64,000 nucleotides of DNA from Tubiluchus corallicola (taxonomy: Eukaryota; Animalia; Priapulida). The stretch lies in the NCBI GenBank assembly GCA_030141605.1, contig JAQGDQ010000135.1, forward strand, positions 1-64,000, given 5' to 3'. The translations under genes were made by a program, and so were the position numbers. Shown one piece after another: positions 33,701 to 39,700 of the stretch (the stretch's first letter is position 1; every line of letters starts with the position of its first letter). The notes under the pieces were generated by a model, which was not told where the DNA came from, made no database searches, and saw nothing but the letters and a program-made list of their open reading frames with translations.

Positions 33701-36700
33701 TTGGTTATCGGTGTACTGCACAAAGCCTCAGGCAGCTGTACCTTGTGAAACTTCCACTGTCGAAAATTTAGATTTAAAAATGCCAATATCAATGACATTA
33801 CAATAATCGTCTTTATTATGAGAAGTTGATCTATAGTCGAACTACCGAAACATTTCGGGTGAATCTCATACGCATTGTCAGTCAACTAAACAAAAACAGA
33901 TAGAGCCCAAGAGTCTACATCTACTGTTCTGAATAATTGTAACGATTTTCGTAATATCTCTGGTGTTATGCTAGAAATTGCGGCATAATTGTGCCACTAA
34001 GCAGATGTATATCCAAAGTATTGAGTATATTCAAATTGACAAGTACAAGTAGCAGTTTCTAATATAATAACTGACTTCCCATTTGTCATTTGTAATAGCG
34101 GTAGGAAAGGACAAAAAAAGTGGAAAACAGAATGACTGTACAGAACAATGTAATAACGCACTAAAAGTAGGCTCTGTACATCTTTGTAAATAATAACATT
34201 TTTGTTGCAAAAATTGTGAAGTAAAGTGTTTCTAGTTCGTACACAGTTTCCTGGTTAAACTGTGCTTTTCTAGTGTCAGTCTACATCAAAGTTGTGCAAT
34301 TCTTCATTTATTAAGTTTGTCATTTTTACAGGTCGGCTCATTTCAGCATTCTTGCAATCAAACAGAATTCTTTGCTAGCAGAGGCATATTCCAATCTAGG
34401 AAATGTTTACAAAGAGCAGGGCCAGCTAAAAGAAGCGCTAGACAACTATCGGCACGCTGTTCGCCTAAAGCCTGACTTCATCGATGGCTACATCAATTTA
34501 GCTGCTGCTCTTGTAGCAGCAGGTGATATGGAAGGAGCTGTACAAGCTTACGTTACCGCTCTTCAGTATAATCCAGTATGTAGAGATTCTGTGAAAATAT
34601 TTATTATTTTTTGTGTTATTTAAAGTCTATTTTATTTTCTAAAATTTATGCAATGATTCATTTATTTGCAGGATTTGTATTGTGTTCGAAGTGATTTGGG
34701 AAATTTGCTCAAAGCATTGGGGAGATTGGACGAAGCAAAGGTACAAGTTTGTGAAATCGAGATGCAAATTCTTCTATCTAAAGTGTACAAGATGTGAAAA
34801 AATTAGGCAGTATTACTAGCAATTGCTAAATGATTGATAAAATCAATTTTTGATGAGAGTCAATATCAAATGAAGGCGTTTTTTATTGGATAACATATAT
34901 GTCATTCTTGTACAGCTGTAATTAGATTATTCAGCATATTTTTTGCAGTTACATCAAACTTGGCAAAATTTGTATAACTTTTCTCTTTGTCGGGAACCAG
35001 TTGCTAAGCAGACAGTTTTTATAAATTCAATACCGAATATCATTTTACTTGAACGCTGCTTTTGGTGTTGGTTAATTGGACATGTTTTGCATGATGTTGA
35101 AGCAAGTAAACTTCTAGAACTTTTTACTAAAGTCGTTCTGAAACACTAAAAAGCAGAGTTTTATAGAGAATGAGATTCGATTCGCGCTACTGCTTGCTGA
35201 ACATGTTTTATTTCAGGAATCGGAGTACTAACCTTTATTTTGAATTACATAGCAGGAGCAGCAGACATCGCAGCTGTCTTCGACAGAATCACATTTACTT
35301 CAGTGCGCTTTCTGTATTGGAAAGACGCTGTACGCCTGTTTTTTTAGTGGTTTGTTCAACCATTGATACTGTTTTTTACATGAATTCACTCAATTAGAAT
35401 TTTTTGAAATGATTACTATCGTTTATATAATTAAAATAAAACTGTTGATTTTGCAAATGTGTTTAATTTAGTCAGTCGGTGTACAGCCTCTTTACCATGG
35501 CTTGCAGCGCTGATATGCGCTTGGCAGTTTACATCCTTCTTTAAATGGAAAATACCATCTCTCTGTAAAGGTACTCTAATTATTGATTATGATTTTCCCA
35601 TTAAATTAAACTCAAGTTTTGCTTCTAACCTTAGCATCATTTGTTTTGTTTTTTTTTGGAATTTTTATTTCTGCTAAATTCACTGTGTTGGAAGAGTCGA
35701 GGAGATTGTTTTTTCCTGCAAAGATGGCATGTTGGCCAACGTTCAGTAAGTAGTTTATCAAAACTGTCTCACTTGCCTTTTCAGTTAATATTTTCAAGTA
35801 AAGTGAAGAGTTGCTGAATGTTCAATACAGCTGTCCCACAAAATAGTTTCTCCTATCTATAAGTCTCTTTTCTTGTAAACTTGTTTAGCATTGCTAGTAC
35901 TGCATCTGTGAAAATTCTGGTGCTTAAGATACATTAAATTGTGAAAGAGGTTTATATCAGTTGGTATTTTACTGTAATTGAACAGAACTGCCCAGCAGAA
36001 TTTAAATGTTGCAAATTTTCAATATGTACGCTTGTAATTTAACACAGAGAGTGCAAGCGACTTGTTAGAAAATTTATTGCTATTTTATATTTGAAACTGT
36101 TTGGCGCTGTACAGGTTACAGCCTGCTGCTGACTGCTGTTTGTCTTATTGTTGCTTGTGTTTATTGGCACAACAATGAACTCTTGCTGCTTTCAAGCACT
36201 TCCTTGCAATTGTCTGCAATGAACTGTTTTTTCCGGGGATTCTAACTTTGTCAGATCAGCTACATTTCTGGCTGATCTGACAGGGTTCTTGATTCCCGGC
36301 GCTTGGCCTCAAGTGCTGGCGACCGCTTACACAATAAAAAAGCTAACTAATAATTTCTTTTTTTGTTTTTCTCCTTAAATCTGTGCATCATGTTCGTATA
36401 TAAGACCTTGCGTTCGTCAATTACCAACGTCTCGTCTGCCGAGGATCGTCACGCCAGCTGAGCCGATTCAGGACCGGTAATATTCTAACAGGACCTTGAT
36501 TTCATAATTTTTTAATATGATTATTAGTTAAATCTTGTTATGTATTTTGCAGTTAAAGTAGATGTTTATGTTACTCCTTATTTGCCTGGTAAGTTCAATG
36601 TGTTAATATATTGAACGTTGAATTTTCTTAGATGAGCTCTTTTAACATTTACGATATTGTATCGTGTTGCTTGATCCACGTGTATGCAGCAGTTGCTGTT

Positions 36701-39700
36701 GCGCGCGTTCATGCGAATGCGGCAGGCACTGCAGCACGTGTTCACATGAATACGATTATTGCTTGCGCGTTTACCGCATGCGGCGATCGCTATCGTACGC
36801 GTTCATGCACATGGAACCATCATTACTTGGCACATTTTTCCCTTGCAGGTTATTTCACCCTTATGTAGCCACAGGTATGGGCGTGGCCTTCGCCTGTGTG
36901 ATGCAAACTGTTTTTATTAATTACAACTACGGTTTGTCATTTGAAACAAAATGTTCAGGAAGTGAGGATTTGTAGCCGAGCACTCTTTATACTTCCAATT
37001 GTTTTATCATGAAAATAGATGACAATAACCAAAGTTTGCTGATAAAACGGTTTGCATGGTGCTGTCGTATTCTGATTTTGTTACAGAATTGTTGGCTAAT
37101 GACTACCTGTTTTTTAGACACTGGTGCACGGGTAATACTGGTTCAACTGTATGCTCCTGCGGGATAAAGTTAACTCTCTTTTTTGTTTCCAATGTCTGAC
37201 TAGCACTAACCAACAATGTGCATTATATATATATATATATATATATATATCTAGACTTGAGCGTTAACTTTGTCCTTTTAGTATGTTGCGCTGTGTGCGC
37301 TGCGCTACAGCTTGCATATAAAGGTTAGCGTTAATTTTATATTTTTGGACTGCGCTGCATTTTCAGAGCTGCGTCCCCCCCAATTGCACGTTGTATCTTT
37401 TGCGTTGTACCATCTCACTGCACATTAAATGTGCCCTATTGATTTGATTGTAATGGAGCATTTTTTATTTTTCTTTCCTCGAATTTTCCTTTCCCTCTCT
37501 CCGCATATGTCTAGGCATGCTACTTGAAAGCGATAGAAACTCAACCCAACTTTGCCGTAGCCTGGAGCAATTTGGGATGCGTGTTCAATGCCCAGGGAGA
37601 GATCTGGTTGGCGATACATCATTTCGAGAAGGTTTGTCTTTTCTGTTTAACGTTGGTCTTTGTCTTTTCTTTTTAATGCAAAATTCATTAGGTCATCATA
37701 TATAGTCGATTTAACTTTCGAGCACTGGCATGCTTAAGAGAACTGAAAAGTTTGTACGCATTGAAAATTCAGTAATTTGTTTCAAATATTTCTCCTGTCT
37801 GCAACGAAACCTGCTGTCCAGAAAATGAGTACGGCTTTTAGTTTGATAGACTAGGCTGCTCATTTGCTTATTTGTGGTCATGTCATGGTAAACTTGTCCA
37901 GTAACTTTTAGGGTTAAATCTGGACAAGCAGTGCCTTATATCATTTAATGGCATCATTTTTTTTGTCATTTCCCTTTGTTTTGTGCCACTTATTTTCTGC
38001 GTGATGCTGTTGAAAAATATCCGCTTTTGAAGAAACGTTTACATCGTGCTATGTCAATTAGTACATTGTGCTTGTACCATTATTAAATAGTACTGCCAAA
38101 GCCTGAATAGCTGCTACGTGTTATGTTTACCTGTGTTTCTGATGCACAGAAGTAGGTGTGCAGATATATATGGTAAAGTATCCTCGTTTCAGTGTAAATT
38201 TAGTGTTAACGTCTGTATTTTAATCAAGCGCATGTATCGTTTACTTTGCAATCTCTATTTCCATCAAGTTGCTGCATTTTGTACATTTTGTTTTGCTTTA
38301 AATGACAAATCACCTTTCTTATTGTTCGAATGTAATCTAGGCCGTGCAGCTGGACCCGAACTTTTTGGATGCATACATCAATCTTGGAAATGTGCTGAAG
38401 GAAGCAAGGATATTTGACAGAGCTGTTGCCGCTTATCTACGTGCACTTAATTTGAGTCCAAATAACGCTGTCGTCCATGGAAACTTGGCATGTGTTTATT
38501 ATGAACAAGGGTACGTGTTGAACTATTACGATTTTTTAAGGCTTAGATATTTGTGATGATGAAGTTGCAATTGATAACATTTGTCAAGTTTTTCCTGATT
38601 CATGATTGCGAATTTCAGGTTGATTGATTTGGCGATTGATACATATAGAAGAGCAATTGAGTTGCAGCCTCATTTTCCCGATGCGTACTGTAATCTTGCA
38701 AATGCATTAAAGGAACAGGGGAAGGTATGTTAGTACGTTGATATCGCTGATGTTTTTCTTGAGAATTTGTTAGATGAATTGTTCAGAAAGTAATGCATGT
38801 ATAACTCGAACACCTCGGTATCGAAAAATTTGTTCGAGTTATGTGAAAGTACGAGTTAGACAATGTTCGTAAGGAAACTAGATTAAGTCACTCTTCAACG
38901 TCATACAATACACTAGTAACATTACAGCCTGTGAAAATAACAAACTAAACCGTATATCAAACATTAAACAACAATGTTTATGAATAATCAAAAAATAAAA
39001 TGACTGGACCACTTCTATTGTAATCTGAGTAGCATGGTTAATGGAATTTGGCAGTAATAATATTGTGATCTACGTTAAACCAAGTTCTTTAACCCATGTT
39101 GTGTGCGGCGTTTTGCTAAGGTAATACAAGAAGACTTAAAAATTTTGTTGAAACCAGCAGTTAAAATTTTAATGTGGTGCACACTTTCGCGTGAGAATTC
39201 TCGCTTGGGAGGCTGTTCGAAATGGGCGACGTAATTTCAATAAGATTTCTTAAGAATTGTACAGGGAATTTGGTTTGAGTTACGCGATAATTCAAGGTAT
39301 AGATTTCGAGTTACATGATGTTTGTTAAAGGGAAAAATGAAAGGGAAAATCCATTCCACGAAATCTGTTTGAGATACGTAACTATTCAAGTTACGCCAGT
39401 TCGAGTTATACTTAGTTTACTGCAGTTCACACATTACCAAATGTTCATTATGTATATGTTTTTAAACACATTTTCCATCTTTCAGTAGTGACGATCTAAT
39501 TCAGGATTTTCCACAAGTCTTGTTAGGAGCTTGAGCTTCACTTAAATAGATCTAATTATCCTAACATGTAATTGTTTGTGTTTTTATTTGTGAAGGTATT
39601 GGAAGCGGAAGAATGCTACAACACCGCATTGCGTTTATGTCCGACACATGCTGATTCCCTAAATAATTTAGCTAACATTAAACGTGAGCAGGGCTTCATC

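Follow-up and report, generated by a model that had tools for sequence, protein, structure and literature searches.

The fourth intron of an OGT gene, contained in a 64,000-nucleotide (nt) stretch of DNA from the priapulid Tubiluchus corallicola (GenBank assembly GCA_030141605.1, contig JAQGDQ010000135.1, positions 1 to 64,000; hereafter the window), appears to act as a splicing brake with a predicted decoy or poison exon, and we hold with moderate confidence that this brake probably serves O-GlcNAc feedback, as in vertebrates. Regulated retention of the intron with an internal cassette is the part of which we are most confident; given such regulation, O-GlcNAc is, by analogy, the likely signal. 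The evidence comes from the length, splice signals and hairpin of the intron, from the conservation of blocks within it and their appearance in RNA-like data from a close relative, and from retention and cassettes at the same junction in other invertebrates. The brake is probably older than vertebrates and ancestral to bilaterians, the present forms presumably descending from a common ancestor.

In vertebrates, OGT intron 4 contains an intronic splicing silencer (Park 2017, PMC5588854) that overlaps a decoy or poison exon of 143-153 nt (Parra 2018, PMC6097662; Parra 2020, PMC7373989; Tan 2020, PMC7261177), and its control depends on SFSWAP (PMC12017769). The human intron sits after the first three TPRs (PMC4901358). 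These and related papers describe the element from mammals to fish, jawless fish included, and report none in Drosophila (sources include PMC5588854, PMC7261177, PMC6097662, PMC7373989, PMC12017769, PMC4901358, PMC11765297, PMC4384737 and PMC12894984). They call the factor that reads O-GlcNAc at this intron not fully known and treat the feedback as a vertebrate trait, and one reports that the final 150 nt of human intron 4 have no homologous counterpart in fly, worm or zebrafish (PMC4901358). Literature searches, which covered listings and the openings of abstracts and took in few subscription journals, showed no paper on an OGT intron-4 module in an invertebrate.

The window intron is the fourth of its gene, in phase 0, and lies directly 5' of an exon whose protein sequence is identical to that of human OGT (39 of 39 residues). 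We take the human exon boundary to fall exactly at the residue that starts exon 5. The main features are as follows.

34672..34740, + strand: OGT exon 4, 69 nt, from the gene model
34741..37514, + strand: OGT intron 4, GT..AG, phase 0, 2774 nt
37515..37631, + strand: OGT exon 5, from the gene model, identical to human OGT
37462..37514, + strand: long C-rich pyrimidine tract and acceptor, with a 54-nt AG-free zone
36234..36298, + strand: hairpin of about 66 nt (8 base pairs (bp), internal loop, 19 bp, 6-nt loop)

An earlier note, made from the letters of the window alone, had described intron 4 as the longest of the gene, at 2774 nt against 0.1-0.9 kilobases for most others, and the gene model bears out both coordinates and lengths: the next longest of the 21 introns measure 1878 and 1553 nt, the median is 265 nt, and 18 of the 21 fall between 96 and 871 nt. 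Read-through from exon 4 into the intron reaches an in-frame stop at codon 19. The note had also held that repeats elsewhere in the window do not account for this length. This is correct in that blastn finds no match to intron 4 in the rest of the window, but it is not distinctive, since five of the six other introns longer than 500 nt lack such a match as well, so that intron 4 is not singled out by it. In X1, a DNA-like run, no pile-up of repeats covers the body of the intron, where depth stays at 2.7-9.9; in intron 1 it reaches 8555.

Its splice signals are unusual in two respects. The pyrimidine tract before exon 5, which the note had called unusually long, holds 42 pyrimidines in the last 50 nt, compared with 21-35 in the 20 other introns. 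A claimed excess of internal splice signals stands for donors only: with a matrix trained on just the 21 sites of the gene, four internal donors in intron 4 score no lower than the lower quartile of the true donors, versus none in the 6452 nt of the six other introns longer than 500 nt. These four are spread across 36589-37324, the strongest being at 36589. For acceptors, we rejected an excess (2 in intron 4 vs 4 in the other long introns). Clusters of YGCY proposed at about 36100-36220 did not hold up, the 47 copies observed in the intron equalling chance (shuffle mean 47.3), and an MBNL-type cluster was likewise rejected because the best candidate (8 copies in 120 nt from 36078) was matched by 29 of 300 shuffles; intron 5 is denser in YGCY than intron 4 (19.7 vs 16.9 per kilobase). 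In contrast to these clusters, the long hairpin is well founded: the segment 36234-36298 has a z score of -7.73, no shuffle out of 200 folds as strongly, and among local folds spanning up to 80 nt on the + strand it ranks second in the whole window.

The evidence for constraint within the intron comes from X2, a single run of a single study from a close relative, brought in by its species label. Its status as RNA rests on a tool's guess and on spliced joints, together with a putative adapter end discussed below. X2 contigs were placed on the window only at 80% likeness or more, so diverged introns would appear uncovered even if retained. Among the joints listed (15 of 81), those in OGT span introns 5, 6, 16, 17, 19, 20 and 21, and the exon pieces are about 96% alike to the window. 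Depth is zero in the bins of introns 2 and 5, while intron 4 has cover, and no non-repeat piece from another OGT intron appears among the matches listed. A comparison restricted to 34660-37640 gave one contig spliced from exon 5 and four that lie within intron 4 (35171-35334, 36060-36230, 36355-36580 and 36622-36720), with 653 of the 2774 nt aligned. About 2030 nt of the intron, including candidate micro-exon B (below) and the 3' tract, together with exons 2-4, are without X2 cover and uninformative, because the records were filtered and diverged pieces were not aligned. The blocks are the following.

35171..35334, + strand: conserved block 1, 9 differences in 157 aligned nt
36060..36252, + strand: conserved block 2, 8 differences in 171 aligned nt and a 16-nt insertion in the relative
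36355..36580, + strand: conserved block 3, with 5 differences in 226 nt, all outside 36355-36421; unspliced in X2
36622..36781, + strand: block 4, a degenerate GC-rich repeat region with X2 depth similar to that of block 3

Block 3 differs at 2.2% of positions, compared with 4.3% in five exon pieces (30 of 693), up to 19% at the synonymous sites of those pieces and 11% in a piece of the 3' untranslated region (23 of 208), which indicates constraint stronger than that on coding sequence (Fisher p from 1.7e-8 to 1.5e-4, depending on the comparison). Blocks 1 and 2 are moderately conserved and block 4 is not, its 13 differences in 99 aligned nt being no better than neutral. Taken together, the conserved blocks differ by 2.2-5.7% in this one relative, while the changes in the five exon pieces would amount to 19% of 156 synonymous sites if every change were synonymous; on this one comparison, intron 4 is taken to be more conserved than the other introns of the gene. 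Conserved blocks had been predicted at 36200-36900 and were found in and near that range (36060-36230 and 36355-36580). Within block 2 lie the YGCY-rich stretch and, at 36114, an acceptor-like site; its X2 contig has the highest depth of the intron (275). Of the hairpin, the relative's 5' arm is visible by eye in a loose contig end and carries one change in the unpaired loop and one that would keep a wobble pair; the 3' arm is uncovered. We also observed that the block 1 contig joins 35334 back to 35171, that is, 164 nt onto itself, with an acceptor-like site 13 nt downstream and a donor at 35170 if the relative has a G there; a nested lariat, a circle, a ligation chimera and a tandem duplication are all possible origins.

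Block 3 coincides with the segment that we propose as the decoy.

36343..36375, + strand: branch-point-like motif (36343-36347) and pyrimidine tract, 5' of candidate exon A
36405..36588, + strand: candidate decoy/poison exon A (predicted), ending at the strongest internal donor, 36589
36849..36874, + strand: candidate micro-exon B (predicted), 26 nt, with a C-rich acceptor and a donor at 36875

With the first AG beyond the tract as its acceptor, candidate exon A would measure 184 nt; with the second, at 36443, it would measure 145 nt. There are ten AGs in 36345-36588, and eight of them give an in-frame stop within the exon, while the other two gave no usable result in the stop test. Block 3 starts in the pyrimidine tract and runs across the ten AGs and a stretch richer in GC to a point 8 nt short of the donor at 36589; the next X2 contig begins 33 nt past that donor. 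The two contigs have depths of 27.3 and 24.8, and cover at similar depth on both sides of the donor is consistent with unspliced RNA. Micro-exon B would shift the frame and lead to a stop in exon 5; no branch-point consensus was found upstream of it.

The same junction was then compared in other invertebrates, using metagenome contigs found with exon 3 (80 of at least 423 confirmed stretches, from a scan about half complete). Among 61 loci examined, exon 4 was found in 50, and exons 3 and 4 were joined in 20 of those. Dropping four doubtful ones, L022 (intron 1 present, hence possibly genomic) and L050, L059 and L060 (weak or doubtful exon-4 match), left 16 transcript-like contigs. Nine of these read into intron 4, two start with a cassette that does not begin with GT, and five are plainly spliced, so that 11 of the 16 are not plainly spliced at the intron 4 junction. 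The contig L001 is a near-complete message in which intron 4 (2550 nt) is the only intron kept, and in L001, L006, L012 and L024 all other junctions in the covered stretch are spliced; retention with other introns spliced was seen in L001, L006, L024 and L033. A spliced cassette is present in three loci: L012 has one of 145 nt with a stop, L024 has a cassette followed by the downstream intron, and L033 has the upstream intron and a cassette joined to exon 5. This arrangement of two introns around a poison exon is like that of vertebrate OGT (PMC7261177). Among the listed members of the contig clusters, at least 10 more end in read-through from the intron-4 donor and at least two in a different cassette.

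These contigs come from several groups. L001, L006 and L012 fall with the copepod Tigriopus; L016 belongs to a cluster with barnacle proteins, L015 to one with an oyster fragment, and L033 to that of the protein XP_067948699, whose genome locus is L082 (assembly GCA_963576615.1), which we take to be a bryozoan. As L082 has four upstream introns that L033 is without, L033 is confirmed as RNA. Intron 4 of L082 measures 1666 nt, and its 18 other introns are at most 855 nt. The ends of the L033 cassette match the acceptor and tandem donors of the genomic relatives L052, L053 and L082, L082 having the acceptor and the tandem donor pair in common with L053 and the donor pair also with L052. The tandem donors resemble the paired donors of the human decoy (PMC7373989, PMC12017769). 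Across 11 cleanly mapped genomic loci, mostly partial, intron 4 is the longest visible intron in nine. The other features of the window intron are less general: judged by energies without shuffles, a strong hairpin is not general to intron 4 in other loci, and only in some loci (e.g. L005 and L052, not L026, L044, L055 or L056) is the intron-4 tract clearly the richer when set beside that of intron 3. Two further observations concern these loci. L052, L053, L055 and L082 share an additional intron within exon 3 and have similar GC-rich motifs immediately 5' of the intron-4 acceptor, and the copepod-like L022 (positions 89-623) keeps introns 1 and 4 while introns 2 and 3 are absent; either intron loss that spared intron 4 or partly spliced RNA would account for it.

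When all 4-mers were ranked in intron 4 of 33 loci, GCGC came first, with 171 copies against 100 expected and a count above expectation in 27 of the 33; control introns (49 from 25 loci) gave 30 against 33 expected. The 33 are what remained of the 50 exon-4 loci after five near-duplicates, three short tails, five spliced contigs and L012, L042, L047 and L059 were dropped. The window agrees, with 13 copies in intron 4 against 6.8 expected, compared with 4 against 6.5 in its other OGT introns.

Several results weigh against a conserved, regulated module. blastn of the window intron against the 80 loci returned only (TA)n and chance-level matches, and no sequence is alignable between it and intron 4 of L082. 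GCGC is not enriched in L082 (3 vs 2.7 expected) or L033 (0); CGCG is enriched too, so that clustering of CpG could explain the excess, and the 33 loci include related species. For these reasons we regard GCGC as a lead rather than a binding site. In L042 and L047, the two exceptions among the 11 mapped genomic loci, intron 4 is short (245 and 96 nt). X2 is one run, RNA by guess and joints, whose contig depths cannot rank gene parts, and those in intron 4 (275, 48, 27 and 25) are too uneven to be accounted for by one retained isoform. As to the retention coverage that the earlier note proposed as a check, pieces of intron 4 occur beside spliced OGT joints, but no X2 contig connects them to a spliced exon. 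The exon 4-exon 5 junction does not appear in X2, nor does any junction into exon A or micro-exon B, spliced cassettes being seen in L012, L024 and L033 instead. The closely spaced tandem donor of the L082 group is absent at 36589. Finally, Drosophila sxc (Ogt) is described as lacking a silencer-like element and being controlled through a long intron (PMC5588854).

Three other explanations were weighed. The intron may be a real module of retained intron and poison exon that is governed by something other than O-GlcNAc (tissue, stage, temperature or a splicing factor) or that constitutively caps OGT output. All of the sequence and RNA evidence fits this equally well, no sequence match ties intron 4 to the vertebrate sensor, and retention in Drosophila sxc is shifted by an unrelated drug (PMC11765297, in passages that do not identify the intron); nevertheless, the vertebrate-like position and layout in copepods, a barnacle, a bivalve-like form and the L082 group would be explained most simply by one ancient autoregulatory function, and we consider this explanation unlikely, though to be taken seriously. 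At the other extreme, intron 4 could be an ordinary long intron, constitutively spliced, whose X2 pieces are nascent RNA or DNA seen only where the two species are similar. In favor of this, only 653 of 2774 nt are aligned, from one run, and block 4 is near neutral divergence. However, block 3 is more conserved than the coding exons, exactly this junction is left unspliced or carries a cassette in 11 of the 16 transcript-like contigs from other animals, and the sole strong internal donors among the long introns are those of intron 4, making this the least probable of the readings.

It is also conceivable, though improbable, that the intron is long and conserved as a host of separate small RNAs, either a hairpin RNA or, at 35171-35334, a stable circle or lariat, with retention being incidental. 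The block 2 contig has a depth of 275 compared with 112-159 for spliced exons, and it starts with 22 loose letters, which we take to be the Illumina small-RNA 5' adapter and which would then mark a ligated 5' end; the block 1 contig joins back onto itself, and the z score of the hairpin points the same way. Against this, the five Rfam matches all have E values of 5.9-8.7 and were taken as chance, blocks 1, 2 and 3 show no clear box or hairpin pattern (fold z scores from -0.67 to +1.56), and the spliced cassettes in other phyla are left unexplained. A canonical primary microRNA has a stem of about 35 bp, for which the 27-bp stem, without basal extension, is short. A canonical intronic microRNA or small nucleolar RNA was accordingly rejected (best Rfam E value 5.9; 27-bp stem, 6-nt loop, no basal stem).

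A splicing brake tuned by O-GlcNAc, the explanation that we favor, would work through an internal exon that is recognized yet rarely spliced and that ties up the terminal splice sites. In the window, the segment 36405-36588 would be this decoy, its weak multiple acceptors and its donor engaging the terminal sites without catalysis. Retained RNA would then be kept in the nucleus, cassette-containing RNA would be degraded by nonsense-mediated decay, and O-GlcNAc would set the split, a high level favoring retention and a low level splicing. Decoy identity, detention, decay and O-GlcNAc input are all carried over from work on vertebrates (PMC5588854, PMC7261177, PMC6097662, PMC7373989, PMC12017769).

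More tentatively, the O-GlcNAc switch itself may date from the last common bilaterian ancestor, its position, decoy layout and GCGC-rich code having been kept for more than 550 million years while all alignable sequence was lost. If so, the priapulid intron would be expected to respond to O-GlcNAc in a human reporter, pointing to the sensor. Function kept without sequence would turn the shared features into a short list of what that sensor must recognize: position, a stop-bearing cassette, paired donors in some groups, GCGC words and often a C-rich tract. A nutrient-sensing splicing loop would thereby be redated to the origin of bilaterians, and its apparent absence in the fly would be a loss.

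The OGT gene model occupies 30722-45805 on the + strand, with 22 exons, 21 introns and an open frame of 1034 amino acids. Intron 2 (32779-34331) is of the GC-AG type, the sole GC donor among the 21. In a FastTree phylogeny built from the window protein together with 17 locus-derived and 25 database proteins, the window OGT groups with Priapulus caudatus P0121 (support 0.996), which points to a likely priapulid other than P. caudatus; the placement is provisional, because the tree has no named deuterostome and one named spiralian, and P0121 is without its N-terminal part. From residue 470 onward, identity is 79% with P0121 and 69-74% with chelicerates and a centipede. In the P. caudatus locus L081, whose sequence starts 3' of exon 9, the boundaries of exons 10-21 match those of the window, and a search for homologues of exon 17 found nothing. 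The donor of the last intron (45418-45805 region) overlaps an in-frame stop, so that unspliced RNA would end the protein immediately, and splicing, as seen in X2, adds a short terminal coding exon; two OGT C-termini are thus possible. High-copy repeats lie within introns 1 and 7 (31400-32060 and 38820-39270; X1 depth up to 8555). Unspliced X1 contigs cover the exon groups 37556-38311, 41783-42797 and 43736-45000 at depths of 165-714, with 3-11 elsewhere, a pattern that resembles a target-capture DNA library.

Tail to tail with OGT lies a large cadherin gene with EGF and laminin-G parts (49581-57591, - strand), for which a search with the tail returned distant matches only (33-43%), one of them named protocadherin Fat 4. 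On the 5' side of OGT, the segment 24253-24328 forms the strongest + strand local hairpin of the window (-43.2 kcal/mol, 20-bp basal stem) and is possibly an inverted-repeat element. Broken reading frames at 27505-27925 appear to resemble the end of a LINE reverse transcriptase.

By analogy, the window intron may on present evidence be said to work like the vertebrate OGT intron-4 module, which stops short of establishing it as a member. It is likewise the fourth OGT intron, of similar length (2.8 kilobases here vs 3.3), with conserved internal blocks and a predicted stop-bearing, exon-like segment offering several possible acceptors, and its sequence occurs in RNA-like data beside spliced neighbors. 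The 145-nt form of candidate exon A is close to the human decoy of 143-153 nt (PMC6097662). Unlike in the vertebrate module, no pair of donors spaced by 7 nt was seen at 36589, and the hairpin and GCGC signature of the window are without mention in the available passages of the vertebrate papers. Drosophila sxc offers a further likeness, as an invertebrate OGT under splicing control with intron retention (PMC11765297). Beyond OGT, the genes for SR proteins, SF3B1, ARGLU1 and MAT2A differ in their signals, but in them too, output is tuned by a long retained intron with a conserved non-coding cassette in it (PMC7261177, PMC6097662).

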